Shown here: positions 2,658 through 62,497 of the stretch, piece after piece
Layout: each line of letters starts with the position of its first letter
Position numbering within the stretch: the first letter of the stretch is position 1
UHGV virus genome: UHGV-1367859
Source of the DNA: a virus
DNA length: 64,000 nt
Direction: 5' to 3' (one strand)
Program-made: the position numbers and the translations under genes
Notes under the pieces: generated by a model
The model's database searches: none
What the model was told of the DNA's origin: nothing
The model's input: the letters and a program-made list of their open reading frames with translations, nothing else

Positions 2658-3377
2658 TTTATTATTAAGTTATAGTATCCTTCAGTATGAGTATTATAGT
2701 TATATATGAAGTGCCAAGAACCAAAGTGAATTTTTTCTCTGTAGTGAAGTTTTTCATCTATGACTTTGCTCATACATATCATACTACCATACCCAACTAT
2801 GTTCGCTTCTTTGGAAGCAAGGTAGAAAGGAAGAGGGGATATGAATACACTTTTAAGTTTTACTTGGGTGTAGCCTTCTCTAACATAGAATCTTCCAAGG
2901 AATACAGGTTGTCTCCAGTTAGATGCCTTCTTACACAGCTTGATTATCTCGCTCTGTGAGGGCATATTTTTCTCATTGGTAACTCTATAAAGTGGATTTA
3001 GAGTAGGCTGTATATACCTTCTTCTCTTCTTATAGTTAAGGATTCCATTTGTAATATAGAACCCACCCCCACCTTGAGATGTTTTCTTTCTTTTGTATAC
3101 TCCTATAAAACTCTCTTTTAAGGTTATACCTACGCACAGATTTACCACACCTCTTTAAGAACTCAGAGTAAACCTTGTCTATTGGCTTGCCTACATTTGC
3201 TAGTAGGAATTTCTCTAAGTATTCAGCGACATGTACAATTCCTATCCCTCCATATAACCCTCTCATACGCATGTGAGAACCCTCGAAATTCTTGAACTTC
3301 TTTGTTCCTCTTACGAACTTAGGAAATCCTCTACTTCTCTTGCCATTTCCACACCTTCTAACTTTGAATGTTATCAT
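2654..3377 (-). pseudogene. hypothetical gene split into two overlapping frames (2654..3148 and 3036..3377); possible frameshift or two overlapping genes
   Basis: The two ORFs (164 aa and 113 aa) overlap by 113 nt in different frames. Both are Lys/Arg-rich. Confidence 0.2.
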
Positions 3378-3601
3378 ATCTCAAACAGGTATTTATATAC
3401 TCTTCCTTTGTAACATGGACCATCCCAAGCATTGTACCACAGATAGACCCTATAGTGGGAGATAAGCACTACCACTTCAATCTTTGGTTCATAATGTCTG
3501 AACATGGGCCATATAGTACAAAAGAGAAGTACTGTAATTAGTATCATTATATCCATGTTGTTGAACTTTGCAAAAAAAAAGAGGTAAGGGAGTGAATACA
3601 C
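3374..3601 (-). CDS. small membrane protein
   Basis: 75 aa with the hydrophobic core MILITVLLFCTIWPMF. TGA stop overlaps the next start. Confidence 0.3.
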   Translation of the reverse strand: MYSLPYLFFFAKFNNMDIMILITVLLFCTIWPMFRHYEPKIEVVVLISHYRVYLWYNAWDGPCYKGRVYKYLFEI

Positions 3602-4207: not shown

Positions 4208-4588
4208 TTATGACAATGACTGCAACAAATGCAGCTTGTTAGGAAGATAGAACCTTACCCAGCTATAGTAGATGTCTCCCTTGGTGAGTTTAGGCTCCCA
4301 ACCTCCATTAAGAGCCTTGCGGATGATGTCCAGTTTGTAGATGGCTATAAGGTGCTTGCCAAGTCCACACTCTGCCTCTTCTATTCTCTCTATGTCATAG
4401 TTTACATTGCCTTCACTAAGACCAAGAGCCTTGCAAGCATCCTCAAAGGTCTTGATGTCAGTGTAGTGTACTTCCTTGAGTTCATTCTCTGTGAAGGCTT
4501 GCAATGCTACCTCTCTGAGAGCATCATTGCCACTGTTATAGAACTCTTTAGCCTTGTCAAGAGTCAGTGTTACATTTCTTGTTTCCAT
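4208..4588 (-). CDS. hypothetical protein
   Basis: 126 aa ORF with a TAA stop. Confidence 0.4.
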   Translation of the reverse strand: METRNVTLTLDKAKEFYNSGNDALREVALQAFTENELKEVHYTDIKTFEDACKALGLSEGNVNYDIERIEEAECGLGKHLIAIYKLDIIRKALNGGWEPKLTKGDIYYSWVRFYLPNKLHLLQSLS

Positions 4589-4597
4589 TGTTTCTAT

Positions 4598-4918
4598 TTA
4601 GAATCTGAGTAATCTTTTAATTCTGTTCCATAAACCATTTGTGTTGTGATTAGGAGTGATATGCACTCCTTCTCTGTTGATGGTCCTGTTTCTCATGTTG
4701 CTCTCTGTACCTACCATGGTAAAGAGGCACCCTACATACTTGCTATGGTTGGGATTAGATAGTATATTATACCATCTCCATGAAATACTTGATACAGCTC
4801 TGTTGAGCTGCTGTGAAACTTCCCTGAAAGCTTGAGCTTTGTTGTGAGGATTTGCTTTTACAGCTTGGACTAAGACTTGGTCTTCCTCAGCAGTCCATCT
4901 TTTTTTTTGTTCTACCAT
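4598..4918 (-). CDS. Myb/SANT-like DNA-binding protein
   Basis: RWTAEEDQVLVQAV ... W ... WRWYNIL spacing resembles a Myb/SANT helix-turn-helix repeat. 106 aa. Confidence 0.35.
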   Translation of the reverse strand: MVEQKKRWTAEEDQVLVQAVKANPHNKAQAFREVSQQLNRAVSSISWRWYNILSNPNHSKYVGCLFTMVGTESNMRNRTINREGVHITPNHNTNGLWNRIKRLLRF

Positions 4919-4945
4919 TTTGTTTACTTGTAATTTGTTCAGTTG

Positions 4946-4970
4946 TGGAGCATGAGGGAGTCGAACCCTC
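4946..4970 (-). tRNA. orphan tRNA 3' fragment (T-arm plus acceptor 3' strand)
   Basis: The minus strand reads GAGGG-TTCGACT-CCCTC-ATGCTCC-A, a perfect T stem-loop followed by an acceptor 3' strand. No complementary GGAGCAT 5' strand was found within 600 nt. Confidence 0.35.
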
Positions 4971-5572
4971 GTCTTACAAACTTCACATAAGAGAATTGTA
5001 CATGCTTTTCAATTTGGAGTGTTTTCTTCACAGGGTTGACTAGTTGTCTTTCCACCACTCTGTTTTATTGTCCATAAACAGAGAAAAAGTTGGCTTACCT
5101 TCTCCGTGCATATCAGAGCTAATTAAGCACTAGGACCTCGGACTGCCAGTCTTAGTTTCCTTTCAGACTTTTGCACCTTTCTGTTTCCAAGCAAGTGCTG
5201 CTCAGAGTCAAGCTTATGCAGCCATTCTCACAGGAGTTTCATCAACTTCTGCATCTAAGTTTACTTGCTATTTATAGAGTATGCCCTCTTGCATGTTCTC
5301 TTACCTAATAATTTGCAATCAAATACCAGATATGCCCCAAATGTTGCTTCTTCAAAAAGAAAATCTTAAACAAAACTCCGAAGCAAGTTTTGTATTTAGC
5401 CTTATTCTTTACTAACCTTTTGTTTCTCTCCCTTGTAGTCTTCAATAAAGCGAACTTATCTTTTAGGAGCCTACATTAGAGTATGCAGGATACTGCCTTT
5501 TAGAGTCGAGGTCATGACTGTCTAATAAATCATTGGTGATTCCAGTGAGACTCGAACTCACAACCTACAGAT

Positions 5573-5989
5573 TTATCTGTGATGATTATGATGATAAATT
5601 CTATCACTATTCTTATTCTTGCTTTTGTATGTGTCTAACTGTGAGTCACAATTAGGGCAAACAAGTCTAAGATTAGTTCTAATATTGTTGTTAGCATGAC
5701 CATCAATGTGGTCAAGTATAAATACTAATGGTTTATTATTCCAAGTATCAACACATCCACAAATAGAACATTTATGTTCTTGTTCTTTTAGGATATGTTT
5801 CTTTACCCAAAACATATTACTCTGTCCTTCATACTCTTCGGGATGTTGTAAATATCTTTGGTATTTTTGCTTGGATTGGTATTCCATCTGGCATTTATTT
5901 GAACAATACTTTCCAGACATATTATATGCTGGATAAAATTCATCACCACAATTTACGCAGATACAATTACTTCTTCTCTTTGGATTCAT
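5573..5989 (-). CDS. HNH homing endonuclease (inside the split tRNA)
   Basis: 138 aa with Cys-rich zinc knuckles and a ...LDHIDGH...N...LVCPNCDSQ HNH core. Its paralogue sits at 12822. The TAA stop lies 1 nt before the tRNA 3' exon. Confidence 0.7.
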   Translation of the reverse strand: MNPKRRSNCICVNCGDEFYPAYNMSGKYCSNKCQMEYQSKQKYQRYLQHPEEYEGQSNMFWVKKHILKEQEHKCSICGCVDTWNNKPLVFILDHIDGHANNNIRTNLRLVCPNCDSQLDTYKSKNKNSDRIYHHNHHR

Positions 5990-6009
5990 AATATATAAAT
6001 TTATTTTAG

Positions 6010-6082
6010 TCTCCCCTCCCAGACTCGAACTGGGGTTTATGGTTTAGAAGACCATTGTTACTATCCGCTGAACTAAGGGGAG
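6010..6082 (-). tRNA. tRNA-Arg(TCT)
   Basis: Cloverleaf with acceptor CTCCCCT/AGGGGAG, anticodon stem ATGGT/ACCAT, loop CTTCTAA and T-loop TTCGAGT. Confidence 0.7.
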
Positions 6083-6345
6083 TTATGCAAAGTTAGTAAT
6101 AAATTTCTATACTATGAAATCCTTAGAGTTAAAGTATCTTAAGTCTGTTGCTCTATCCATTTGAGCTATGGAACCATTTGCATCACTTCTTTACGTATAT
6201 TGCTAATGCTACTAGATATATGGCATCAAGTGTCATACCTATCAAATAGAATAGGCTGGCTACAGTAATTGCTATGCACTGAAAAATCAGTATTGCTTTC
6301 TCCATTGTTTCTGTTTTCATTTTCCTTCTTACTTTAATTGTTTAG

Positions 6346-6419
6346 TACCCCCAGAAGGACTCGAACCTTCCACCTACAGTTTAGGAAACTGTTGCTCTAT
6401 CCTGATGAGCTATGAGGGC
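6346..6419 (-). tRNA. tRNA-Arg(CCT)
   Basis: Acceptor GCCCTCA/TGGGGGT, D arm GCTC..GAGC, anticodon stem ACAGT/ACTGT, loop TTCCTAA and T arm GAAGG-TTCGAGT-CCTTC. Confidence 0.7.
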
Positions 6420-6509
6420 AAGTAAAAACTCCACATTATCTTCACAGACTATGTGAAGTGTTGCGACGTCATCCTAAAATAATCATCTTTTTACCTTAAA
6501 AAACACAAA

Positions 6510-6740
6510 TCACAATTCATCATCAGGCATTCCTCCGAAGAGTTTATTTCCTGAGAGTATATCAAATTCTTCCTCTGTGATAGTCTTGTAGCATACATAT
6601 ATGAGTAATGCTACAATACCTGTTGCAGGAAAGAAATAACCTTGGTCATAGATGCTGTCTACTCCACATATAGAGAACATAGCCATTACCATGGTAGTGT
6701 AGAGTAGGAGTCCTTTAAGGACAAGTTTCATTGTCTTCAT
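6510..6740 (-). CDS. small membrane protein
   Basis: 76 aa with two TM segments. TGA stop. Confidence 0.3.
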   Translation of the reverse strand: MKTMKLVLKGLLLYTTMVMAMFSICGVDSIYDQGYFFPATGIVALLIYVCYKTITEEEFDILSGNKLFGGMPDDEL

Positions 6741-6777
6741 ATGTCTCTTTCTGGTTTTTCTGTTGTGAGTGCGCCAC

Positions 6778-7104
6778 CTACCATATAGAAGGTAATGCCC
6801 TTAAATGATTTCCTTCTCTCTCTCTTGCCTGCTTTATTGCTTTGGCTTTGTCATAAGTCTTTTTCACAGCAGTTCTATTAGCTGTGTTATACTCCTCAAG
6901 TATTATAGCATAACTGTGTATATCCATATCTACTAGAGTATATGTCTTTGAGTATTTGACAAGATTGTTCCTTTTGAGAGCAGCCCAGAAATGAGATGAC
7001 TTTGGACAGCCACATTCTTTCAGGATTATATCCCATTGCTTCTTGGTGAAGCTTAAGTTATTGAACCAGGATAATCTTTCAACAACTTGTTCTTGCTGTG
7101 TCAT
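6778..7104 (-). CDS. hypothetical protein (ends at TAG)
   Basis: 108 aa. It is the only early minus-strand gene ending in TAG. Read-through would add 21 codons before a TAA at about 6715. Confidence 0.4.
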   Translation of the reverse strand: MTQQEQVVERLSWFNNLSFTKKQWDIILKECGCPKSSHFWAALKRNNLVKYSKTYTLVDMDIHSYAIILEEYNTANRTAVKKTYDKAKAIKQAREREGNHLRALPSIW

Positions 7105-7109
7105 TTGAT

Positions 7110-7403
7110 TTATTCATTGATACCTAACTCTTGTTTGATTTGGGTCTGTACTTCTTTAGGTAGGTAATACTTATATTCCTTGCCTGTCTTCTTTGATACT
7201 CTCTTGACATAACAAGCACCTTTCTTAGTGATAAAGATAGGATACTTGTTACCTTGTTTGTCTTCCCAAATATACTTGGTCTGAGTATCATTTGCAGTAG
7301 ATTTGGTTTGTTCAACCTTGAAGGTGTCACCTTCTCTTTTGACCTCTGCATATCCTGTTACTGCAAATATTGATAGGAGAATGCAGATTATGAGCTTTTT
7401 CAT
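7110..7403 (-). CDS. secreted protein with signal peptide
   Basis: The track ORF is 7110..7493. The probable start is the internal Met giving MKKLIICILLSIFAVTGYAEV, a signal peptide. Confidence 0.4.
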   Translation of the reverse strand: MKKLIICILLSIFAVTGYAEVKREGDTFKVEQTKSTANDTQTKYIWEDKQGNKYPIFITKKGACYVKRVSKKTGKEYKYYLPKEVQTQIKQELGINE

Positions 7404-7538
7404 CGTTTGTTTTTGTGTTCTGAGTATTTTATTAGAAGGAAAAAGATGAAGAATAGTATGATTGTTCCTATTATTAGGTCTAAGTTTTTCCATTGATTAG
7501 TCAGTAAAAACAGTTATACATTATAGATTAAGCCCAAT

Positions 7539-7805
7539 TTAGATGTCCCCGTCAGAGAGCCATTTACATAGGAGGATTGCCAATGCCCAACAAACGAGCA
7601 TTGCAGTAAAGAATAGTAAAATATCCATATTATTAATATTCAAGGGATTACAGTAGAAAAGAGGGATAATAGAGAAGGAATGTTTTATCCTATCCCATAC
7701 TATCCCTCTTGTATAGAGTGTCAAGTAACAGAACATTCTATATCCACTATCAACATTAATACCTTTCAAGTGTAAGACACATAATAGGATACTATTAATG
7801 TTCAA
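7539..7805 (-). CDS. hypothetical small membrane protein
   Basis: 88 aa with the hydrophobic C-terminal segment LLFFTAMLVCWALAILLC. Confidence 0.3.
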   Translation of the reverse strand: MNINSILLCVLHLKGINVDSGYRMFCYLTLYTRGIVWDRIKHSFSIIPLFYCNPLNINNMDILLFFTAMLVCWALAILLCKWLSDGDI

Positions 7806-11634: not shown

Positions 11635-11705
11635 GCTCCCTTAGTTCAATGGAAGAACAAGGGTCTTCTAAGCCCTAAGTTGTAAGTTCGAGTCTTACAG
11701 GGAGT
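11635..11705 (+). tRNA. tRNA-Arg(TCT)
   Basis: Acceptor GCTCCCT/AGGGAGT, D arm GTTC..GAAC, anticodon stem AGGGT/GCCCT, loop CTTCTAA, T arm GTAAG-TTCGAGT-CTTAC. Confidence 0.7.
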
Positions 11706-11791
11706 ACAAACTTGTTCGTGAAAAGAATGTAAATGGCAAAGAAGTGAGAATCATTACCTACCTAGCCTGTGAAGGTGCAAGTAGGGTGCAT

Positions 11792-15637: not shown

Positions 15638-15709
15638 TTGCCTCATGGTGTAATGGTTAGCACAGAGGACTCTAAATCCTTTGGTCTCTGTTCGAGCCAG
15701 AGTGGGGCG
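15638..15709 (+). tRNA. amber suppressor tRNA, anticodon CUA (tRNA-Sup(CTA), probably Gln-derived)
   Basis: TGCCTCA-TG-GTGT-AATGGTTA-GCAC-A-GAGGA-CTCTAAA-TCCTT-TGGT-CTCTG-TTCGAGC-CAGAG-TGGGGCG-A. The loop has U33, anticodon CTA and A37. The D arm and 5' acceptor match tRNA-Gln(TTG) at 11559. Confidence 0.8.
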
Positions 15710-15725
15710 ACTAACTTTAATCACA

Positions 15726-19511: not shown

Positions 19512-19920
19512 TATGACACTTGAAGATGTAATTGAATCACTTAATGTGCATATACTGAATAAAAGAAGAGACTTGCACATCTTGTCAAACAGCCAGGAAC
19601 ACCTTGTTCTACAGAGAGTTATAGAACCTCATCCTACATTTAAGTCATATAAGAGGTATGAGTTTATATTATGGGTGGTTGGTAATGATTCAAAGTATAG
19701 ATTACTTACTTTGACTAAGCAGGTTAATATGAGTGATATTCCTTCATATGCACAAGAGAGCTTTATTAAAGCTACAGAATCTGAATTTGTTACTGGGCTA
19801 TTCGGCCTTATTCTAGATGGCAAGTCTTTTAATAAAAAAGACAGAACAATACTTGAAGATATTATCTATGGAGAATACCTCGGCTATGGAGATGAATGTG
19901 TACTAGACCCCCTTGACTGA
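19477..19920 (+). CDS. hypothetical protein
   Basis: 147 aa with a TGA stop. The start is uncertain. Confidence 0.3.
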   Translation: MLRKKQCMKICNMTLEDVIESLNVHILNKRRDLHILSNSQEHLVLQRVIEPHPTFKSYKRYEFILWVVGNDSKYRLLTLTKQVNMSDIPSYAQESFIKATESEFVTGLFGLILDGKSFNKKDRTILEDIIYGEYLGYGDECVLDPLD

Positions 19921-22900
19921 AGAACTCCTTGGGTCTTTACCTGAGGAAGTCAAGGAGGAGTTATTGGACACTATAAATAGTGTAGAACTTATAAAAAGAC
20001 TTATCTCTCCTAATAGGGTATATGCTAAGGATAGACCAAGAGATGAGCAAGGAAGGATTATAGTAGACCTTGCCAATCCTCATATACTTGAGGATATGGA
20101 TTATTTCAGACAACCAGCCTTACACTTTATGAAGCATGGCTGCTATACTTTTCTAAGACCAAATTCTAATCCTAACAGTGAATACAGAAAGCACTGGGAT
20201 GAGGAGATGAGGAGATGTAGAGAGGGTTATGTAAGGGAGAGTGATGGAGAATGGGTCACAGGATTCCTTTATTGGTTTCTTAATTACTGTCCCATGATGG
20301 TAAATAAGGTAATTTCTGGCACAAGGAAAGCTGTCAGAGTTGAGTCTTTCCCCTTCTTCTTTGAAGGAATCTATTGGAGATTTCACTATCTTCATCAAGC
20401 AAGAGAGGCTGGTAAACATGCCATAGAACTTGCAAAGAGAGGTTGTGCAAAGTCATATAGTCTTGCAAGTATAATGTCTCACAACCTTATACTTGGTGAA
20501 TCTACTGAAGTAAAGAGGAGGGTTATTACTGTACTTACTGCTTATCAGAAAGAGTATCTTAGTGACAGTAAGGATGGCACACTCTCTAAGTTCAAACCTG
20601 GAATTAACTTCTCCTTCAAAAATACTCCATTCCCTAGGCTCATGTTAAAGAACTCTCCTAATGAGATGGCATGGCAGATGGGCTACAAGGATGAGTTTGG
20701 TATTGAAAGTGGGTCATTGAATCAGGTGCTTGCTGTTTCTGCAAAGGATGACTCAGAGAAGTTAAGAGGTAAGAGAGGTTGGATTCTATTCGAGGAGATG
20801 GGTTCTTTTAAGGGACTTCTATCCCTGTATGACATCACAAGAAAATCTGTAGAAGATGGTGACTATACATTTGCTACAATGTACCTTGTAGGTTGTGTAT
20901 GTGCTGGTACTAAGGTATGGACATTAGATGGCAGGAATATCAATATAGAGGATTTAAAGAGAGAGGATGGTATCATAGGATTTACAGACTCCTTTGAGTC
21001 AGGTACTGAACCTAATATTCGCCTCACAAGAGGGATTACCAAAGAACCTATAATGAGTTCTATAAGTATTGCTAAAAAACCATGTGTACTTATTAAACTG
21101 AGTAATGGAAATGAACTTAGATGCTCTACAGACCATCCAATTCTTACTCAGAAACAAAGAATGAATCATAATGGGTCTATAAGGTATTATGAAGAAGTAT
21201 TCAAAAATGCTGGAGCTTTAAGTGTAGGAGATAGAATTATAGAGAGTAGGGAAGTTCCAATATTTGGGACAGATACCATGTTTGACCCTAGATTAGTAGG
21301 TATGCTTATTGGAGATGGTTCTTATGGATTAAGGCAATCCCCCAAGTATAGTTCTGAGGATAAAGAGCTTTTAGACTATGTAAAGCATAGATATGAATGG
21401 TCATTATCTGCTACTCATATTACCAAGAAAGGAAAAATATACGAGGATATAAGAATTAAAGGTATTTGTAATAAATTAAGAGAATTAGGTATTTAGGGGC
21501 AAGTAAAATCCAATAAAAGGCTTCCTATCAACTATTAGACTCTTACAAGAGATGATACCTCACTATTGCTATCTGGATTATATGATACTGATGGTAGTAT
21601 AAGCTTTAATAGAGACGGATATATATCTTTAACTCAAAGCAATAGGAAAATATTAGAGCAAGTTAAAGTACTGTGGAGAAAATTTGGAGTAGTTGGCACT
21701 ATTGTGGAGACCAAGCCAAAACTATGTTCTGATAGGAAAGATAGAAATTCTTGGTTTACTCTATCTATATCAGGGAGACATAATTGTACAAGAGTGTGTG
21801 GTGTGCTTCAACTTCTTGTTCCACACAAGAGAGATTGCCTTAAAAGGATAATGGACTATTATAATAGCAATCCGAGTATGAAGGCTCAAAAATATCCAGA
21901 GGATATAATAGTTCACAAAGTTACTTCTGTAGAAGAGATAGGTGAACAAGAAGTATATAATTTAACTGCTGGATTAAGTCATACCTACTTGGCTAACAAT
22001 ATAGTAACTCATAATACTGCTGCTGAGGATGAGTCAGACTTCAGTTCGGCAAAAACTCTTCTTTACAATCCAGATGGTTACAATATTCTGGCTATTGAGA
22101 ATGTCTATGACAGACCTAAGCAAGGAAAGCCTACCTTTGGATTTTTCTTTCCTTCTTATGTAAATAGGGCAGGATGTTACAACAAGGATGGTGTTTCTGA
22201 TGTAACAAAGGCTCTCATAGAAATTCTGTTGGCAAGACACAAAGCTAAATATTCTGCTGACCCTAAGTCAGTATTAAGAGTTATTGCCGAGGACCCAATT
22301 ACACCAGCTGAAGCTATCATTAAAGTGAAGGCTGCCTACTTTCCTACAGTAGCTCTTACTGAGAGATTGGCTCAACTTGACTCAGACCCTCATGCTTTTG
22401 ATGATGTTTACATAGGTAATCTTGCCCTAGCAAGTGGTAATAAGGTAGAGTTTAGAATAGGTAATGATGTGCCTATCAGAAAGTATGGAGTTGACAATTC
22501 AACAGTAGGTGCTATTGAGATATTTGAAATGCCTGAGAAACAAGCAAATGGGGATGATTTCAATATGAGATATATTATAGGCCATGACCCTGTGGATAAT
22601 GATTAGGCAGAGTCTTCTTCTCTTTCTTCAACCTTTGTACTTGACCTGTTTACTGACAGAATTGTAGCAGAATACACTGGTAGGCAGGCATTTGCAGATG
22701 ATAACTTTGAGATAGTAAGAATGCTGTGTCTATTCTATAATGCCAAGTGCATGTACGAGGCTCATCCATATAGTCAGTCTGTACCAACACCAAATGGTAT
22801 GAAACTGTGGAAGGATGTTAAAATAGGGGATAAACTGTTTTCCCCCACAAAGGGTGAAGTAACAGTAACTAATATACCAGTTGATGAGTACATGCCTATA

Positions 22901-24241
22901 TATAAGGTTAAATTAGCTGATGGCAGAATTGTAGAAGCTAGTAATAATCATATATGGCTAGTATATAAAGGAACTTCTAGAACTCCTATCGAAATTACTA
23001 CAGAAGAAATGCTTAGGTCAGGGTTAATAACTAAACACAAGCAACATAAGTTTTTTATACCTGAGCATAATGGGGTTGATTATAGTTATAAAGAATTGCT
23101 CATAGACCCCTATACTATGGGTTTATTGCTTTCTGAAGGGAGTCTAACAGGAGGTCATTGTGGCAAAAATTATGTACAGATGTCCTCTTCTAGGGAAGAT
23201 ATGGATTTCTACAAAAAGAATATCCCATATAGAGTTAACTATATTGGTAACAAGGGGTACTCTTGGCATATTTATATTCCAGGATGTAGAGATATAATGA
23301 CTAAATATGGGTTATATGGAGCTACAAGTCACACTAAGTTCATTCCAAATGAATATCTTTTCAGTAACTATGTTCAGAGAATGGAACTACTGAGGGGAAT
23401 AATGGATGGAGATGGGTGTGCCAGAACTAGGGGGGCTAGTGTATTTATTACATGCTCACAGTCACTTGCAAATAATGTATTATCCTTAGCTAGAAGTTTA
23501 GGGATGAAAGCATGGCTTCAGACTCCTAAAGAAGGGGTATATAGAGTGTTGATATCTTCCATATATAAGATATTCAAACTCCCTAGGAAAGTAGTGGAGC
23601 AACATACTTATAAGCCTTATAGTAAAGGAAGTAGAGCCTCAGCTATATTAGGAAAGACTGCGATAGATAGTATTAAATATTCTCACATGGAAATGGGCAA
23701 ATGTGTCACTGTAGACTCAGATGATGGACTATATATGATAGGAGATTATGTAGTAACTCATAATTGTAATAAGAAAGGACTATATGCCTATTTCAATAAA
23801 ATGAATTGCACACACCTACTGGCAGATACTCCTGAATATTTAAGAGACAAACAGATGATTAAGTATTCTGCCTTTGGCTCAAATGCAAAAGGTATCAATG
23901 CGAATGCTACTATCAACAATTATGCTAATAACCTGATAAGGGATTGGCTACTTCAGCCAGTTCCAACTATAATAAAGGAGGATGGAGAAGAGAAAGAGGT
24001 CAATATTCCAAGGCTCTATTCTCTAAGAAATAGAGCATTACTTGAAGAGTTAATTTCCTACACTCCTGAACTTAATGTGGATAGAATCAGGGCATTAGGT
24101 ATGGTTATGCTGTATAGACAAGAGAAGATTATACTGTATAGAGATAATCTTAATGCTAAGGCACAGGAGGAAGTCAGTAGTTCATACTTAGGCAATGATT
24201 CTTTCTTCCAAAGGAATTACTCCCAAGGGTATATACAGTAA
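19913..24241 (+). CDS. terL: terminase large subunit (TerL) interrupted by two inteins; three in-frame TAG codons
   Basis: Track ORFs 19913..21496, 21566..22606 and 22721..24241 share one frame and are joined through TAGs at 21494, 21536 and 22604. The C-terminal extein after the second intein is TerL-nuclease-like. It ends at TAA. Confidence 0.65.
20894..22015 (+). mobile_element. intein 1 (374 aa) with double-motif LAGLIDADG homing endonuclease
   Basis: It begins CVCAGTKVWTLDG (Hint block A). The LAGLIDADG motifs are LVGMLIGDGSYG and LLSGLYDTDGSIS. It ends VYNL ... IVTHN followed by the extein Thr. Two in-frame TAGs fall inside it. Confidence 0.65.
22760..23764 (+). mobile_element. intein 2 (about 335 aa) with LAGLIDADG endonuclease; N-terminal boundary approximate
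   Basis: The C-terminus GDYVVTHN followed by Cys (N at 23762-23764) is well defined. The LAGLIDADG motifs are MGLLLSEGSL and LLRGIMDGDG. Block A is VPTPNGMKLW ... IGDKL. The first residue could be Ala (22760) or Cys (22748). Confidence 0.5.
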
Positions 24242-36696: not shown

Positions 36697-38211
36697 ATGG
36701 CTGGAAAACTGAATAAGTTCCAAATGATTGGCTTTTCTCACTGGAAAGGTCTGACAAAGGACAACCACCTTGGTCAAATCTTCCAGCTTGCTCCACAGAA
36801 GGCAACTAACCTAATGGTACAGCTATTAGCTTGGTATAGAGGTAAGACTCTTGATACCTTCCTAAGCCAGTTCCCTACAAAAGAGTTTGAAGATGACTCA
36901 GAATATTACTGGGATGTAATTGGCTCTACCAGAAGGAACATTCCTCTGCTTGAAGCAAGAGATGAGAATGGCAATGTAGTAACCGCAACAACTGTTGCCA
37001 ATGTGGGTGTTGGTACAGCTGTATTTGAGCTTGTCTTCCCTGAAGACTGGTTTGCTGATGGTGAAGTAATTGTAGGTAATCTGAATGAAGTATATCCCAT
37101 GAGGATTCTTGGTAATCCGAGAATGGAAGGTACTAATGCAGTTTACAAGGTAGAGCTAATGGGTGGAATAACCCAAGGTATTCCTGCTGAGAGACTCCTT
37201 CCAGGAGAAAGATTCAGCTATGAATATGCTCCTGTAGAAAGAGCACTTTCAAGGAAAGTTGGTGATGTTAGATTCACTTCTCCCGTATCTATGAGAAATG
37301 AATGGTCTACCATCAGAATCCAACATAAGGTACCTGGCAATATGCTCAACAAGAAACTTGCATGTGGTATTCCTGTAACAAAGGAAACTCCTACAGGTTA
37401 CACTAAGTCTGTGGTTAACATGTGGATGCACTATGTTGACTGGGAAGTTGAACAGACATTCTCTGAATACAAGAATAACATTCTTGCTTTTGGTAGAAGC
37501 AATAGAAACAACAATGGAGAGTATCTGAACTTTGGTAAGTCAGGTGAAGTTATCAAGATGGGTGCTGGTCTGTTTGAACAAATGGAAGTAGCAAATACCC
37601 AATACTACAACAAGTTCAGTCTGAAACTTCTTGAAGATGCTCTGTATGAACTGTCTGCATCCAAGCTTGACTTTGGTGACAGGTACTTCGTCATTAAGAC
37701 AGGTGAAAGAGGTGCTATACAATTCCATAAGGCTGTACTTCAGACTGTAAGTGGATGGACTCAGTTCACACTTAATGGTGATGCTCTGAATGTTGTTGAG
37801 AAGACACAAAGTACTCTTCATACTAATGCTCTTGCAGCTGGCTTCCAGTTTGTAGAGTACAGGGCACCTAATGGTGTAAGAGTGAAGCTTGATGTTGACC
37901 CATACTATGATGACCCAATAAGAAACAAGGTACAACACCCTGATGGTGGACCTGCCTTCTCTTACAGGTATGACATCATGTACATTGGTACTATGGACCA
38001 GCCCAATATCTTCAAGTGTAAGATTAAGGGACAAGATGAGTTCAGAGGTTATCAATGGGGATTGAGAAATCCTTTCACAGGTCAGCTTGGTAATCAATTC
38101 ATGTCATATGATGAAGATTCAGCTACCTTCCATAGGATGGCTACTCTTGGTATTTGTGTTCTTGACCCAACTAGAACAATGTCACTTATCCCTGCTATAC
38201 TACAGGGCTAA
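36697..38211 (+). CDS. major capsid protein candidate
   Basis: 504 aa, which matches the size of crAss-like HK97-fold capsid proteins. It is TAG-free, follows the scaffold-like gene and is followed by a strong terminator. Confidence 0.45.
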   Translation: MAGKLNKFQMIGFSHWKGLTKDNHLGQIFQLAPQKATNLMVQLLAWYRGKTLDTFLSQFPTKEFEDDSEYYWDVIGSTRRNIPLLEARDENGNVVTATTVANVGVGTAVFELVFPEDWFADGEVIVGNLNEVYPMRILGNPRMEGTNAVYKVELMGGITQGIPAERLLPGERFSYEYAPVERALSRKVGDVRFTSPVSMRNEWSTIRIQHKVPGNMLNKKLACGIPVTKETPTGYTKSVVNMWMHYVDWEVEQTFSEYKNNILAFGRSNRNNNGEYLNFGKSGEVIKMGAGLFEQMEVANTQYYNKFSLKLLEDALYELSASKLDFGDRYFVIKTGERGAIQFHKAVLQTVSGWTQFTLNGDALNVVEKTQSTLHTNALAAGFQFVEYRAPNGVRVKLDVDPYYDDPIRNKVQHPDGGPAFSYRYDIMYIGTMDQPNIFKCKIKGQDEFRGYQWGLRNPFTGQLGNQFMSYDEDSATFHRMATLGICVLDPTRTMSLIPAILQG

Positions 38212-55160: not shown

Positions 55161-58100
55161 CAGGTATAAATACAAAAGAAGGGGCGGCTAGAGAAGCAGA
55201 CAGGATGGGTCAAGCTCCCACAAGTTTTAAATCAGCAGTAAGGCAGAGACTAAGAGAAACTCCCTCAACTCAGTATATAGGAGATACTGTACCAGAAACA
55301 TTTGGTGACTCATCATATGATTATAATGCTGTGCTTCCTAGTGAACTTGAAGACCTTCAGGAGCTGAGAGCTTCTGAACAATCAGGTGTGAACCAACTAG
55401 CAGCAGGTATAGCCAAGGGGGCTATACTTGCTGGCGCTACATTTTTAGATGGTACTGTCGGACTGCTCCTAGGAGCTGGAGCTGCTATAAATGAGGGGAG
55501 ATGGTCAGCTATTTGGGATAATGACTTCTCAAAAGCTATGCAAGCTGTAAATGAGTGGTCAGAAGAAGCTCTTCCTAATTACTATTCCAAAGAAGAGCAA
55601 GAAGGGCCATGGTATGACAACATATTTACAGCTAACTTTATTGGTGATAAGTTCATTAAGAACTTAGGGTTCTCAGTAGGAGCCTTATATTCAGGAGGTG
55701 TAACCTCAGCTGGGCTTAAAGCTACAAAGCTGCCTCAATTGATAGGAGCTATAACTAACAGTGCTAAAGCTCCTGCAATGGTATCTACAGCTGTTGGGGC
55801 TGTTACTTCGGCAGTAAATGAGGGAAGAATTGAGGCTTTGAACAATTCTAAGGACTGGCAAAACCTTAAAGTACAGGAGCTGGATGATATATGGAAGCAG
55901 AAATTAAACGAAAAGTATCAGCCTGAGCTAGATGCCTTAAAAGCAGAATATGATGCTGCTCTCGCAGAATATGAATCAACCAAAGGAACTCTTCAAAGAG
56001 CAGGTTCAGGGGATAGTACAGCTTTGGCAGACCCAGCTTATTAGAAGTACAGAGCCAAACTTGATAGTCTTGACAAAAAGATGGAGGCCCTACAAAACAC
56101 TATGAGTGCTATGTGGGACAACAGGTCAGCTGATAAGACATATAGGGAAGCCTTAGGTAGAATCTCAGAGGATAGACTTAAGATGGGAAATACAGACTTG
56201 CTTCTCAATCTTCCTATACTCATGGCCTCTAATATTGTTCAATTTACTAAGTTTTATTCTAGGGGATTTAACACTGGCAGGAGAGCCAGTGTGGGATTGG
56301 CTGAAGGGGCAACTAGAAATGCACCAAGATACATTGGAAAGGAATTTTCGCCTATAAAGGCAGCTGGAAAAGTTATAAAGGGCGCAGCAGCAGAAGGTAC
56401 AGAAGAAATATCTCAGAGTGGCGCCAGTGCAATATCAGGGGATTATTATTCTACCGATGTTAACAACTTCATCAAATCAAAGATAGACCCAGATGCAGAG
56501 CAAGAGACCTTAAGTTGGACTAAATCTTTTGCTAAGGGTATCAATGAGACTATTAATGATAGTTCAGCTTGGGAGGAGTTTTTCATTGGTGCACTTACTG
56601 GTGCTTTGGGGATTCCCACATTTAGAAGTATGAAGAACTCAGAGGGGGGATTTAGACTTCCTATAGAAATACAAGGTGGTGCTTGGAATGAAATAAAAGA
56701 GTATCAAAGAGAGGTTGCAAGGTCCCAAGAAGTTGCGAATTATCTTAACCAAAGGGTGCAATCTCCTGAGTTTCTCAATTATTATCAGGGTCTCATCAGA
56801 CATAATAAGTACCAAAGAGACATGAATCAGGCTGTTGAGGATGATGATGAGTTTAACTTCAAAAATGCAGAACATGCTCAGTTTGTATCTGATATTATAA
56901 TGTTTGATAATGCAGGAAGATTGGAAGACCTTAGAACTCTTATAGATTCTTCCTTTGATATGTCAGATGAAAACTTGCAGTCTATAGTAGAGAATACTAC
57001 TTCTACTGATGAAAATGGTAAAAGGATTGGCCCGTTTGTAGATAATAATGGGAATCCTATGTATGCTACTGAAGAGGGCAAGAAGTAGATGACTGCTAAG
57101 CTTACTGCTTCCAGGGATAATATGATTGCTACTTTAGACAATTATGTAAAAACTAAAGAGAACATTGATATAAGAACAGGTGGAAATCTCACAGATGAGC
57201 AACTGTCAGAACTCACTTGGATGAAAACTCAGGTAGATGACTGGACTAAGAGAGCCAATGAAATGACTCCCCTAGTCAAAAAGACTCTTGCTGATTTAAG
57301 CAACAATTTGGAACTCAGACTTGCATCTACTCTTAATAATGTAAGTAGTGAAGGAAATGCCAGTGATATAGAAGCAGTAGGAGAACTTGCTAATAAACTT
57401 GGCATAGGGAGTAAAAGAATTAAGCAACTTATGGAACTATCTCACATGGAAGATAGTAGGTTGGCTGCAATTTTGACATCCCCTAAAAATGAGAAATTTG
57501 TAGAGGGTCTCATAGAAGATATTAACAGCTTTGGTAGTGATATTATAGCATCGTTAGATAAACAAAATGTGGTGAGGCTCCTACAAGACTTACCAAAAAT
57601 AGGTAAGGGGGTACAGACCTATAATAAGAAGTTAGAAGAGTACCTTACAGACCCTGCTAAAATTCAGGGGGATATTGAAGCTGCTACCCAACAGGTAGCT
57701 ACTCAACAAGCTGAGAAGAAAGCTGCTGATTTAAAAAGCAGACTATCAGCTGCAAATAGTGTATCTGAACTAAGGTCTATCATTACTGAAGAGAACATGG
57801 ATTCTGCTGTAGAGGGTGTTTTAGGGGAACTTGAAGCAGAAGGCAACCAAGTTGCAAAGAATTATAGAGAAACTGCCCAATACAATAGAGAACTGAATAA
57901 GGCTCTTTCAGAAACTGGGGAGGATGAATAGGTACTTCAAGATGCCATGTCCTTGTGGTAGGAACACTCTAATGCTGCTGAGAATCTTGAACAACTTGCT
58001 AATCCTAACTCCATCTTTATCAATAATGAAGAAGCCTTTATGGAAGACTCAGGTGGTGATGTAGATGTTGCTGGTAATAGGTTCCAAAATGCAAGATATG

Positions 58101-61100
58101 CTCTTCAGAGAGCCATGTCAAAGGTTAATAATGACATAAAGTTTAAGAACAGGTTCTCTGAGGAATATAAGAGACCTATAAATGAGCCTGTAAATGACAA
58201 AGGTATTGATAAGGATGAAACTGGAGACAGTGGCACTTCTACTGTACCTCATGTGAACCCAAATGCAACTCCTATTGAAACAACCCCTGCTCCTGTTGGC
58301 AATGTAACTGCTGAGATGGTTGCATCTGAGAATAGTGATTCTAATAGGAGAGTGGAGACTCAGAGAGACCTTGACAGGGGTCAACAAGGTCAAAGGAAGT
58401 ACTATAGACCTGCTATTCCTGAACTTCATATAGAAGCAAGTAAGGAAGGGGACTTTAGACCTTTCGACACTGTAGTATCTGAAAGAGAGTCAGGTGTAGA
58501 CTTCTCAGGTATCTATAGTTACCTCAGAGACAATGGAGCATTCAACTATGTTAATGCAGCTAAGTTGAAACCTGGAGATACTCTTGGTTTCATGATTGAC
58601 CCTGAGTTTAATGACCATACTATCTTCTTAGTAGATACTAGAAACAATCAGATTGTCGGTAGTATTGATGAATCAGATGCTTCAGTTGCTAGATATGAAG
58701 GTCTTGAAAACATCATAAGAAAAGTAAGAGATGAGTTCCAAAAAAGAGGGGAGGAGGCTACTGGCAAGTTTTTTGCTACCCCTCAAACAAGAGTGTCAAA
58801 AATGATGGTAGGTAGAATCCCTTATAGTACAGAAGAGAGAAGCCTTGCTGATATTCCTGGTGTACTTGATGGAGAAACTAAGCCTATCTTTGGTATTATC
58901 AAAAATGGTGTGCTCACTACTAACGAGAAGATTGATGACAGGCTTATAATCAAGCCTGTTGATATGTCTCAGAAAGAAGGTAGACTCTACTTACTTGTAC
59001 CTAATGGAGCTGGTACTTATAGTCTTGCTGCTGTGAGAGTTAGGCACTTTAATACACAAGAGTTCAACCTTGCTGATGCTACAGTTGCAAATACTCCTAT
59101 AGGTAAAGGTATCAATGAATCTCTTGATAGGCTTGCAGATGCAACATCACAGGATGACGTATCTATAGCAATGAAGGAACTTGCCCAGGACATCTATATG
59201 CAGGATGTTATGGTAACTTGGTTTGATGCTAAAGCTGGTAGTGGTATTGTAGTAAGTAAGAAGGTGAGGAAGCCTGATGGCACTTATGAAATGGTTACTA
59301 TCAATGGGCAGGAGCAAATTAAGGAAGAGAAAACTACTATCTATTATCAGAGTAGCAAGAAGGCTATTGAAGTAAATGGTCTTGAGTATACCTTTGAGGC
59401 AGCTAAAGATGCTGGTATAGATATGTCTCTCTTTGGTCAACCAAGAGACCCCTCTGAAATAAGAAGAGACATACTTGATACTATACTTAGGTATAATCTT
59501 CCTCTTCAAGTAAGTGCTTCAAAGATAAATGAGTCAAGTTACAATAATAGGGTAATTAAGTCTAACATACTTACTTCAAACCTTAGAGAAGCTAAGGTTA
59601 TAGGGAGCTGGTTTACTACTGACTACTTTGACAATCAAGGCAATCTTCAAAGAGCTATAAGTCCTTCCTCAGTTAAGCCTACACCAAGTAGAAGAACATC
59701 TTCTCCTGTAGGAGGAACTGAAGGAGTAGTACAAGGCACAAGAGTAGTAATTGGTAATACTCCTTATGTAGTTGACCTTAAGCATAGTATAGCTGTCAAT
59801 GAGAAGACTGGTGAAAGAAGAGCCTTCTCTACTTTCAATTCTCAGGGACTTATTGACATGGCTTGGGCACAGGAAACCTTTGGGGACTCTACTGAATCCT
59901 CAAGGATGACTGAGAATAAAATTATTACACCTAGGGGAGAAGTTCTTAATAGAAATACTGGTAAATATATAACTGGTACAGAGGCACAAAGAATAAAGGA
60001 CAAGATAGCTGGAAGGAATCAGGTTGATGAAGTGAGAATTGCTCAATCCAAGAGAGTTATTGCTGACATCTATGAGAACCAAAAGAGAGTAGATAAGACA
60101 AGAACTGATAGTGACTACTATTATATTCTTGAGGATGATGGTCAGTACCATCAATATTCTAGAGTTCATAGTAGACTAGGAGATAACTGGCTTGGGGAGA
60201 GAACTGCTAACAATAATTCAGAAAGAGCACTTAAGGCAGGCACTGCTGTTGATAAGGTAATTAGAGATTTCTTCACATCTAAAGAAACCCCTGTAAAGCC
60301 TGATACTCTCTCAGAGTCTGCATTTATAGACTTGATTTCAAAACTTACGGAAATCAAATCTAGGATGGAACAAATGGGAGAAACCTTCATGGCAGATAAT
60401 ATTGTTCTATTCCAGAAATATGCTGATGGTTCAAGAGTGGCAGGAGAGGTTGATATTCTATCAGTTGATAAGAATGGCAACTTCAAAATCTACGATGTGA
60501 AGACTAGCAGGTATAGTTTCAGTGATAGATATTTTACTGAGAAGTCTTCTAAGCAAAGGATGAGCACTAAAGACTACTATACCCTACAACTCTCCGCCTA
60601 TCAGAACCTCTTTGAATCTCAGTATGGTGTAAGACCCACAAGGTTAGCTATTCTTCCTTTTGTACTTACATATGAGAATATATCCTCATCCAAGACAACT
60701 TTACCTAATGGTAAAAGAATAAGTTTAGCAGTACCATCTCAAACTTCTACTGGAGGCTATTTTAGAACTGATAAGACTGTATCTGAGGATGAAGCTAGAT
60801 TTGAAATGGTGGAGACTTCTAATGAAGAAGTTGAATTTGCTCCTATTTTAAGTTCTCAAGCTCATAAGACTTCTATGAAAGCTACTGATGCAAATAAGGC
60901 AGCTATAGAATTTGTAGGTGGAGACCCTAAAGAAGCTGTAGACCTTATATTAGTTGAAACAGGTAAAGGAACTAAAGGAGATAAAGGAAGGGTGACTATT
61001 ACTAAGAAAGCAAAGATATTTGCTGTTACTCCAGGTACTCCTTACGTGCCTCAAACTGAATCTAGAGTAGCTTCAATAGAAGGACAAAAAGGTATACCTA

Positions 61101-62497
61101 TTACCTATAATCCTGCTGTTAATGTACCTCTTGCTAGCTCAGTGAGAGCACCTCAGCAACAGAACTCTCTACCTATCTTTGACTCTACAATGGAAACACT
61201 GATTACTGACAAAGAGCAGAATAGGGTTCTTCCTGAGAATGCTTTTGAAGAGGGAGGTGAGATAGGCTACTATGAGAAAGATGGTAAAGTCTACACTGGT
61301 TATCTTAAGAAGATAGGTGAGATAGAAATTACACATCCTGAGGGGCATAAAACCAAAGAATCTATTTATGTTACTAAGGTAAGGGATAGAGGTTTTGGAA
61401 GAGAGGGAGAACTTGGAACTACTTCAGAATATTTACCAGTATTCAGTAATGGCAAGGCTATCAGTACTAGAACTAATTCTGCAAGTGATGCAGAAGCTGC
61501 TAACATAATTATGAAGGCACTATCTGCAAAACCAGAAAAAGTACTGGCTTTAGCTTTAGAGAAGACTATAATAAAATCTGAGAAACCAACTACAGAAAAA
61601 TCTCAGCAAAGCTCTCAGCCTAGTGGAGCAGCTTCTACTATACAAAGAGAAGATGCTATCAATAACCATGATGATGAGCTTGAAGATGACCTTGACCTAG
61701 GAAACCTTAGAAGAGTTGATGACTCTTCAAGGGGTCTATGGGATAGGGAAAAAGAGCTTGCTTGGCTAGAGAGAGTACTTCCTCAACTGTCTGAACAAGA
61801 CAGGGTAAAGGTAGTAAAGGGTCTTATTCAAGTTGCTAAGAATGGTCCTGTTGCTTGGGGAAGATTTAGTAATGGCATCATAGAGCTTTCTGATGTAGCT
61901 GCTGAGGGTACTGTGTACCATGAAGCTTTCCATGTGGTATTCAATCTTATGCTTACCCCAGAGGAGCAGGCAGCTCTGTTTGAAGAAGCTAAGAATATAT
62001 ATGGCGAGAAGTCTTTATTAGATTTGGAAGAGGACATGGCAGAAGGATTTAGAGAATATGTGGCTTCTCAGGAAAATAGAAGTTTTGGCAGAAAGATACT
62101 TGATTTCTTCAAGCAACTCTTTGCTAAGGTTACTAACTGGAAGCATATGAAGCCATCTCTTACTGCTTACTACCAGGCTATAAATCAAGGAAAATACAGC
62201 AAGGATACTCTACCCTTAAAATCTATAGAAAGACTTAGGGAAGAGCAGCCTACTCTAGAGATGCAGACTATCAAAGAAAAGGCTATTGCTAATGGGACTT
62301 TTATGAAAGCTCCTAATGGTAACCCTTTCTCAACAGAGAATGATGACATCAGATTCAGGACAGTTCCTAACTCCTCATGGTCAATAGTAGATAGCCAAGC
62401 AAGAGAACTTTTAGAGGCCAGAGGATGGACTGAAGAGAAGTTCAATTCAATATCTCAAGCTGAAAGAGACCAAGCAATAAAATGCTCAAGTCTTTAA
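55145..62497 (+). CDS. giant virion protein (about 2450 aa) with 4 in-frame TAGs and a C-terminal HExxH (zincin-like) motif
   Basis: Track ORFs 55145..56044, 56081..57088, 57089..57931 and 58040..62497 are all in one frame. They are joined across TAGs at 56042, 57086, 57929 and 57965. HEAFH lies at about 61919-61933. TAA stop. Confidence 0.5.

Follow-up and report, generated by a model that had tools for sequence, protein, structure and literature searches.

Group I introns that interrupt bacterial tRNA genes in the anticodon loop and carry endonuclease genes are known, with classic examples in tRNA-Leu(UAA), tRNA-fMet and tRNA-Arg(CCU), and the introns in tRNA-Arg(UCU) genes of Bacteroidota carry an endonuclease of the PD-(D/E)XK type (PMC13011429). 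Here, a stretch of 64,000 nucleotides (nt) of the virus genome UHGV-1367859 (the window) was analysed, in which a tRNA-Arg(UCU)-type gene on the minus strand is split in its anticodon loop by an insertion that holds an HNH endonuclease gene and a second, complete tRNA-Arg(UCU) gene (the nested tRNA). The window belongs to a crAss-like phage of the gut, as indicated by a match of 729 bits between its major capsid protein and the Crass_capsid family. Like the bacterial tRNA introns, the insertion lies by U34 in the loop of a tRNA-Arg(UCU), encodes a homing-type endonuclease and has homologues in true introns. Unlike the published tRNA-Arg(UCU) introns, however, it has no ribozyme core, the exon cannot be restored, the endonuclease is of the HNH and not of the PD-(D/E)XK type and the carrier is a crAss-like phage. 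In the explanation that we favour, with a probability of roughly 60%, the tRNA-Arg(UCU) gene was disrupted by a ribozyme-less HNH cassette that carries a replacement tRNA, and the insertion is not an intron that yields a suppressor tRNA.

Several other systems resemble this locus in part. Free-standing endonucleases and ‘collaborative homing’ are reportedly exemplified by SegB of phage T4, the HNH enzymes of phage T5 and a cyanophage psbA intron with a neighbouring endonuclease. As in the free-standing endonucleases of tRNA clusters, members of the HNH family described here are mostly found beside an intact tRNA-Arg(UCU) (41 of 80 loci), and, as in collaborative homing, sometimes beside a tRNA-Arg(UCU) with an intron that lacks an open reading frame (ORF), e.g., in locus L208. 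In contrast to the free-standing enzymes, the HNH gene of the window lies inside its target gene and brings along a second copy of the target. In Aeromonas phage Aeh1 the nrdA gene is said to be split by mobE (the ‘genes in pieces’ that Friedrich et al. reportedly described in 2007). There, too, an endonuclease without intron or intein splits a phage gene into well-preserved pieces, but split protein subunits can reassemble, whereas a tRNA without C35 cannot decode and the nested spare would supply the function. Archaea possess split tRNA halves (Nanoarchaeum) and bulge-helix-bulge introns, some of them with endonuclease ORFs. The halves in the window are likewise separated at the anticodon loop, but neither a complementary leader nor a bulge-helix-bulge motif was found at its junctions, and we know of no splicing endonuclease in Bacteroidota or their phages. 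Finally, homing endonucleases are said to pass through a cycle of invasion, fixation, degeneration and loss (reportedly formulated by Goddard and Burt in 1999). The HNH family shows every stage of this cycle: some sites are empty, some introns carry an ORF and others do not, and there are ORFs without a ribozyme, ORFs with internal deletions and exons that are truncated. It departs from the textbook version in that the ribozyme was lost while a selected endonuclease and a cargo tRNA were kept. For crAss-like phages, introns and inteins have been reported in protein-coding genes (PMC7886860; PMC12386605), and interrupted tRNA genes are not described in the crAss-like phage literature searched, which included these two papers. 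What appears to be new is a cassette without ribozyme that sits inside the tRNA it targets and brings a spare of this tRNA with it.

The features of the locus are listed in Table 1. On the minus strand the first part of the split gene (6175-6137) reads GGTTCCA-TA-GCTC-AAATGGATA-GAGC-A-ACAGA-CTTAAGA and the second (5572-5534) A-TCTGT-AGGTT-GTGAG-TTCGAGT-CTCAC-TGGAATC-A-CCA. Together they fold into a cloverleaf with complete acceptor (7/7, one G-U), D (4/4), anticodon (5/5) and T (5/5) stems. In its long-intron mode ARAGORN draws 5534-6175 as a single tRNA with a 565 nt insertion; wherever else in the window this mode reports a long intron, it has merely joined adjacent intact tRNAs of the array on the plus strand. 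The 565 nt contain a 54 nt leader, the nested tRNA, 19 nt and the HNH gene with 138 amino acids (aa). The stop codon of the latter (TAA, 5575-5573) coincides with the tRNA loop positions U36-A37-A38 and is located 1 nt from the 3′ stem. At the other end the CTT of the 5′ junction is the remnant of loop positions 32-34, and the cassette starts with AAGA, much as the related group I introns in L149 and L184 start with (T)AAGT. An earlier note on this stretch, made from the letters alone, had described the two halves with their 7/7 acceptor and 5/5 anticodon pairs, the HNH ORF, the nested tRNA-Arg(TCT) and the stop codon 1 nt from the 3′ exon. The minus-strand sequence, the ORF listing, ARAGORN and Rfam bear out each of these points, and the same split arrangement was found again in L001 (identical cassette), L002 (about 87% identity in the ORF) and L138 (different context).

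Table 1. Position of the split tRNA-Arg(UCU)-type gene, its insertion and related tRNA genes in the window.
Feature	Position	Strand	Basis or content
Neighbouring intact tRNA-Arg(CCU)	6345..6419	-	ARAGORN and Rfam
5′ half of the split tRNA-Arg(UCU)-type gene	6144..6175	-	Acceptor 5′ strand GGTTCCA, D arm, anticodon-stem 5′ strand ACAGA
5′ junction CTTAAGA	6137..6143	-	Empty-site comparison and intron 5′ ends in L149, L184
Leader/spacer, 54 nt	6083..6136	-	Contains the TAACTTTG box at 6095-6088
Nested intact tRNA-Arg(UCU)	6010..6082	-	ARAGORN (start 6009/6010); Rfam tRNA 56 bits
HNH endonuclease gene, 138 aa, intact	5573..5989	-	ORF; PHROG HNH families
Extra A (5572) and 3′ half	5534..5572	-	TCTGT, variable loop, T arm, TGGAATC, discriminator A, encoded CCA
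Further intact tRNA-Arg(UCU), main tRNA array	11635..11707	+	ARAGORN; Rfam 67.7 bits

To find uninterrupted versions of the gene, loci were scanned with the pattern AGAGCAACAGA-N7-TCTGTAGGT. The scan returned many intact tRNAs, nearly all with the loop CTTCTAA or TTTCTAA, i.e., tRNA-Arg(UCU). In the window the tRNA-Arg(CCU) gene marks a kept gene order of tRNA-Arg(CCU), tRNA-Arg(UCU) and transfer-messenger RNA (tmRNA), and the best intact matches (L073, L022, L218) share it. Syntenic empty sites, with an intact tRNA-Arg(UCU) and the loop C/TTTCTAA, are found in L073, L022, L218, L028 and L047, where the uninterrupted gene stands between tRNA-Arg(CCU) and tmRNA. Compared with intact syntenic genes such as those of L218 and L073, the 5′ half is identical at 29/32 and the 3′ half at 32-33/35 positions, with all differences in the acceptor stem or the D loop. 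This agreement, and the recurrence of the split arrangement in L001, L002 and L138, uphold the statement of the earlier note that the pairing of the halves is not due to chance. Because the halves match intact syntenic tRNA-Arg(UCU) genes, the split gene is by this comparison their orthologue and the ancestral anticodon is UCU and not UAA or UUA.

The empty site reads ACAGA-CTTCTAA-TCTGT; the uninterrupted allele carries ACAGACTTCTAATCTGT, and the empty-site allele of L218 includes GCAACAGACTTCTAATCTGTAGG. In the window the junctions are ACAGA-CTT/AAGA... and ...CACAGA/TAA/A/TCTGT, and the 3′ junction of L002 (...CATAGA/TAA/TCTGT) has one A fewer in the would-be loop. C35 is missing at both flanks in the window, L002 and L009, and therefore excision cannot restore the anticodon. 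Precise removal of the insertion would likewise not give back the uninterrupted gene, with C35 missing and an indel between the window and L002. The earlier note had considered a spliced tRNA with anticodon UAA (Leu) or UUA (a potential ochre/amber reader) and had named the comparison with intact homologues and a search with the Rfam group I models among its checks. The first check gave an uninterrupted tRNA-Arg(UCU) with the loop CTTCTAA at the syntenic locus of relatives, which together with the lost C35 speaks against such anticodons. The indel inside the would-be loop and the lack of an evident splicing mechanism undercut the idea further. On paper, the letters of the window and of L002 still permit a UAA loop (CTTAA+AA).

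The second check did not reveal an intron either. In Rfam searches of 5300-6500 (E<=10) only the two intact tRNAs and noise were obtained, with no intron match, and no group I match reached the gathering score in the whole window. As Rfam recovered a group I intron in only one of the related loci (L184, RF00028, 36 bits, below the gathering score), a custom covariance model (R1) was trained on the cores of the ribozymes in 11 related loci. R1 matched 19 places at 26-159 bits in 96 HNH loci, including loci outside the training set. In the window its best score was 10.9 bits, or 8.8 bits in 5300-6400 with the filters off. L002, L138-L148, L182, L195, the L007 type and the cr53_1 type (named after crAssphage cr53_1, see below) gave no match to R1 either. 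The P7 motif AGACTATA...ATAGTC is not present in the window, nor is a P7/P3/P8 core. In L149-L151, L153, L154, L156, L170, L184 and L215, the HNH ORF is directly followed by the P7/P3/P8 signature, and the group I signature of the relatives reads GTAGAGACTATA...CCTAAG...ATGG...AAATAGTCC. Introns of 216-236 nt with the same core, but without ORF, interrupt tRNA-Arg(UCU) in L208 and L213 with the junctions CTT/...G/CTAA; L209 has a similar ORF-less intron, the boundaries of which are not fixed.

How the insertion of the window differs from these introns is visible at the end of the ORF. The intron-borne proteins end with ...YYRYH-RSAP...ENPLNDES, and their genes enter the ribozyme at ATCATAGG/AGTGC..., whereas the ORF of the window, aligned with these C-termini, ends with ...CATCACAGA/TAA/A/TCTGT (CAT CAC AGA, then TAA). 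Once the nested tRNA and the ORF are subtracted, only 54+19+1 nt are left, which is not enough to accommodate a group I core. The 5′ splice-site U is present (U34), but the terminal G is absent, as the last inserted bases before TAA are ...CACAGA, whereas the true intron relatives end with ...G/CTAA. Judged by these letters, the element has neither the core nor the terminal G of a group I intron, and does not allow restoration of the exon. Of the group-I-like intron with homing endonuclease in the earlier note, the ancestry stands, as homologous HNH genes lie inside true group I introns of tRNA-Arg(UCU), but not the status of the present copy, which has neither core nor room for one. The better fit is the alternative given there, in which the insertion of an endonuclease gene killed the tRNA gene. 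In the split copy the anticodon loop is thus broken by 565 nt without a ribozyme, C35 is gone and the loop length varies between relatives, so that it has neither a continuous 7 nt loop nor a known route to one. A P1-like pairing of CAGACTT with GAGTCTG in the T arm of the nested tRNA was also considered and judged to be due to chance, as it matches what T arms generally look like and is not seen in L007 or in the cr53_1 type.

The HNH ORF of the window matches PHROG HNH endonuclease families with E-values of 3.6e-21, 9.7e-18 and 5.8e-15. The Pfam HNH model gave no match to the ORF, and matches to PDB sequences (I-HmuI, the HNH domain of Cas9) were weak. The block DHIDGHANNN...NLRL.CPNCDSQLD is kept across the homologues, and the protein is predicted from these matches to have an HNH (beta-beta-alpha-metal) nuclease domain. 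The ratio of nonsynonymous to synonymous substitutions (dN/dS) is 0.08 against L002 as well as against L138, with dS of 0.77 and 0.83. The HNH gene is intact and, by these values, under purifying selection.

The nested tRNA differs from its counterpart in L002 at 1/73 positions, and homologous nested copies are present in L007, L138 and L148. It shows all that is expected of a tRNA-Arg(UCU), namely model match, anticodon and conservation. Its anticodon stem (AUGGU/ACCAU) is different from that of the target (ACAGA/UCUGU). In the leader the TAACTTTG box, which from the published consensus is presumed to be a -7 promoter box of the Bacteroides type, ends 5 nt ahead of the nested tRNA. It is the sole TAnnTTTG on the minus strand within 5300-6600 and is kept in L002, L138 and L148. 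The motif AACTCTAAG is common to the leader of the window and the leader of the cr53_1-type cassette. In total the window contains two intact tRNA-Arg(UCU) genes, the nested one and that of the main array, plus a tRNA-Arg(CCU), and with both tRNA-Arg(UCU) copies intact the split copy would be dispensable. In ten long ORFs of the window 230 of the 328 arginine codons are AGA and 96 are AGG, while CGN codons occur only twice. As the phage writes nearly all its arginines as AGA/AGG, a spare tRNA matters. This near-exclusive usage (e.g., in ORFs 19913-21496, 36697-38211 and 58040-62497) goes far beyond what is expected from the GC content of 36%.

A metagenome scan with an alignment of the HNH protein yielded 80 loci. 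The tRNA-Arg(UCU) found intact within 400 nt of the HNH gene in 41 of them is located upstream in 25 and downstream in 16. Of the 80 loci, 17 contain the core of a group I ribozyme, which in most cases follows the ORF immediately. Judged from these neighbourhoods, the HNH family is specialised on tRNA-Arg(UCU)-type genes of phages, and many relatives lie inside group I introns at loop position 34/35. Split genes of related design occur in several versions, two of which, the L007 and the cr53_1 type, come from other crAss-like phages. L007, L139, L140 and L141 have a split tRNA-Arg-type gene with a nested tRNA-Arg(UCU), but without the spacer. The cr53_1 type (RefSeq NC_055889, L008-L017, L145-L147) has a split tRNA-Arg-type gene without a nested tRNA; it is common to more than 10 near-identical gut contigs, two of which have an internally deleted HNH gene (L016 and L017), and L077, with an intact tRNA-Arg(UCU), is the syntenic empty site. 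In the RefSeq record of crAssphage cr53_1 itself (NC_055889, L003 2367-2929) the split gene around the HNH gene KNV47_gp39 is not annotated. L216 has the order 5′ half, HNH, nested tRNA-Arg(UCU), terminator-like hairpin and 3′ half, and by this order is an independent version of the nested-tRNA arrangement. Besides the deleted HNH genes, decay is seen in L148, which has a truncated 3′ half, and in L007, which has lost the CTT and keeps 5/7 acceptor pairs. L182 and L195 contain a ribozyme-less HNH insertion in tRNA-Arg(UCU) that ends with a T-arm-like hairpin (L182 1925-1950, with the equivalent position in L195) just before the 3′ half, and this hairpin covaries (GTAGATTA/TAATCTAC versus GTGTTAG/CTAACAC).

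The same HNH/group I family was also found in tRNA genes with the anticodon UCA, at L165 1384-2106, L166 1384-2721, L168 1384-2105 and L205 1454-2142, where the ribozyme matches flanking the HNH gene come from the covariance-model search. The restored loop is CTT/CAAA, which corresponds to opal-suppressor-type tRNAs with a long variable arm. In L158, L159 and L164 an intact tRNA(UCA) is located upstream of the HNH gene.

Evidence for mobility comes from the comparison of occupied and empty alleles. The site is occupied in the window, L001 and L002 and empty in L073, L022, L218, L028 and L047, and the cr53_1 type and L077 form a second occupied/empty pair. An alignment of the window with L001 contains 144 differences in 2584 positions. 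None of them falls in 6462-5537 (926 nt), a tract that stops precisely with the final base of the 3′ half and has flanks that are about 20% different; this pattern demonstrates, at the level of the alignment, a recent exchange of the whole module. Over its full length the alignment (window 4945-7528, L001 3318-5900) is a mosaic, in which 6462-5537 and 5339-4945 are identical and 6730-6463 and 5536-5340 differ by about 20%. The L138 cassette is close to that of L002 (dS 0.21) in unrelated flanks. Its 5′ half is donor-like (GGTTCCA...) and its 3′ half has a different T stem and the acceptor TGGCAGT, so the acceptor pairs at only about 4-5/7 and the anticodon stem at 4/5. Such a pattern is expected if the cassette homed into a different tRNA-Arg gene with asymmetric co-conversion. 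The alleles therefore show, as far as such comparisons go, a presence/absence polymorphism at a conserved site and horizontal movement together with the flanking exon, as expected for a homing endonuclease. No close relative was found by megablast of 4300-7600 against GenBank, and a pattern search of IMG/VR for further members of the phage lineage of the window gave L001 and L002 only.

In the mechanism that we favour, the ancestral tRNA-Arg(UCU) gene is broken in its anticodon loop by a mobile cassette of leader, tRNA-Arg(UCU) and HNH gene. The whole ribozyme is absent in this lineage, with the ORF ending on the exon's own U36-A37-A38. Because the ribozyme is absent and C35 is gone, the insertion cannot self-splice and no tRNA-Arg is expected from the split gene. 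The HNH enzyme would cut uninterrupted tRNA-Arg(UCU) genes, the nested tRNA would be resistant and compensate for the loss, and splicing would not occur. The nested copy, preceded by a putative Bacteroides-type -7 box, would supply tRNA-Arg(UCU), with a third copy in the array, and the HNH gene is probably expressed from the promoter of the nested tRNA. The HNH family exists in three forms, namely intron-borne, free-standing beside a tRNA, and inside a tRNA without ribozyme. On this reading, a selfish endonuclease can occupy an important, conserved phage gene without a splicing ribozyme; the target tRNA reads 70% of the arginine codons of the phage, and the cassette carries a spare. An HNH/group I family specialised on tRNA-Arg(UCU) and UCA suppressor tRNA genes of gut and environmental phages is undescribed in the literature searched. 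Interrupted tRNA genes of this kind are missed by annotation and standard tools or misread as novel anticodons, which affects counts of suppressor tRNAs.

Against a plain disruption speaks the conservation of the halves, the slow evolution of which is a concrete and testable puzzle. They differ from L002 at only 1/67 positions (0/35 in the 3′ half), as do real neighbouring tRNAs (1/75 and 1/73), whereas spacer, ORF and flanks differ by 11-22% and the HNH gene has the dS of 0.77 given above. The probability of at most one difference in 67 positions is about 1e-3 at a rate of 13% and 6e-6 at 20%. If the insertion is ancestral to the window and L002, a dead gene should have decayed. A recent invasion of the gene can only be presumed, because no uninterrupted allele with the GGTTCCA acceptor was found; the intact alleles recovered are all of the GTCTCCA type. 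In addition, the cr53_1-type halves form two haplotypes with matched compensatory changes at pairs 4-69 and 10-25; position 45 also varies, and in L145, a recombinant, a G-U pair keeps the pairing. The ribozyme is lacking in at least three forms of separate origin (window type, cr53_1 type, L182/L195), so that its absence may be a stable state and not an accident. Module exchange and homing into functional alleles can explain a part of the conservation. Gene conversion from other tRNA-Arg(UCU) copies was considered as a cause and discarded, as the nested and array copies are quite different in sequence.

It is therefore conceivable, if doubtful, that the halves are still used after the loss of the ribozyme, either through ribozyme-independent joining with a changed anticodon or as a tRNA-shaped scaffold by which the transcript of endonuclease and nested tRNA would be processed or stabilised. 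This would explain why they evolve as slowly as real tRNAs, and the locus would be a bacterial-virus counterpart of the archaeal split tRNAs or a natural ‘tRNA scaffold’ messenger RNA (mRNA).

The scaffold version, which on its own we regard as unlikely, holds that the halves pair into a tRNA-like fold that serves the cassette transcript without any decoding tRNA being made. The fold could be a processing signal for RNase P/RNase Z, protect the 3′ end of the HNH mRNA or bind and regulate the endonuclease. It would account for four stems that are kept while the loop region varies, even by an indel, for halves conserved like real tRNAs (with the matched variants of the cr53_1 type), for the HNH stop that abuts the 3′ stem without a separate terminator and for the covarying T-arm-like hairpin at the same place in L182 and L195. 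However, L138, L007 and L148 have mismatched or truncated halves and yet an intact HNH gene, in L216 a terminator hairpin precedes the 3′ half, processing of the nested tRNA would cut the 5′ half off the mRNA and a conserved leader-trailer helix was not found.

Removal of the insertion at the RNA level without a group I ribozyme in cis, by a ribozyme acting in trans or by a nuclease and an RNA ligase, would leave a tRNA of class I whose anticodon is new, and this we hold to be quite improbable, as we do the anticodons that would follow from it (UAA, UAU or UUA in the window, UUU in the cr53_1 type). In its favour, besides the conservation of the halves, ARAGORN is able to draw loops of 7 nt (for the window Leu-UAA, for L002 Ile-UAU, for the cr53_1 type Lys-UUU), the same base stands beside both junctions (A here, T in the cr53_1 type) and all copies have the discriminator A73. 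On the other side, the Rfam classes yielded no ribozyme, either in the region or in the window as a whole, decayed copies exist, and if both genomes are spliced by one rule the loop has 8 nt in the window but 7 nt in L002. Prediction of duplexes in the junction region gave only weak AT-rich pairings, not conserved among the window, L002, L138 and L009, and a conserved pairing of the bulge-helix-bulge-like or leader-trailer kind was not seen. An Arg-type body without C35 would not be charged by the arginyl-tRNA synthetase and a class I body is no substrate of the leucyl-tRNA synthetase, and because of these identity rules a tRNA with a new anticodon is disfavoured. To our knowledge there is no protein-only tRNA splicing pathway in bacteria. 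Among ten long ORFs of the window a Pfam scan, which was not exhaustive, detected no gene for an RNA ligase or for tRNA repair.

That the insertion is a conventional group I intron, self-splicing and equipped with a homing endonuclease, which is one of the two options in the earlier note, is very improbable: the insertion after U34, the intron-like 5′ start and the HNH homologues inside group I introns of tRNA-Arg(UCU) agree with it, but not the 54+19+1 nt without P7/P3/P8 core, the last base (A instead of G) and the exon that without C35 is not restored. An assembly artefact that joined unrelated fragments is hardly credible, as nothing specific points to it apart from the origin of the window from an uncultured phage, and the same arrangement is present in the independent, sequence-differing assemblies L001, L002 and L138, with analogous ones in RefSeq cr53_1 and more than 10 other contigs.

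Around the split gene some further features were observed. Downstream of the split tRNA, at a distance of about 200 nt, the phage encodes a tmRNA (4943-5338, minus strand; Rfam RF00023, 69.5 bits versus a gathering score of 47). ARAGORN misses it, but calls the orthologues in L002 and L073 with the tags AEVDYTPVRMAA and GNTSYRVAA, respectively, each followed by a stop. The tract between split tRNA and tmRNA is variable and contains a hairpin at 5470-5489 on the minus strand (CCTGCAT-ACTCTA-ATGTAGG), which in L002 shows two compensating changes (CCTGTAT...ATACAGG) and may be a small structured RNA. In L002, minus-strand calls of tRNAs with 4-base anticodons (ttgg, ttct; 8 nt loops) are among 6157-6231, 6952-7027, 6261-6379 and 6800-6935, and Rfam tRNA matches of 119 and 136 nt fall in the same region, which has no counterpart in the window; these odd matches suggest more interrupted or unusual tRNA genes. 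In the crAss-like contig L007 a partial match to GOLLD RNA (3204-3414, plus strand; RF02032, 66 bits, cut by the end of the locus) is located near the split tRNA.

Elsewhere on the plus strand of the window, a tRNA with the anticodon CUA (15639-15711; ‘Pyl’ in ARAGORN, Rfam tRNA 55 bits) looks like an amber suppressor, and TAG may be recoded in some of the phage genes. The ORFs 21566-22606 and 22721-24241 contain LAGLIDADG_3 domains (E=9e-12 and 4.7e-06), which suggests inteins or intron endonucleases in neighbouring genes.

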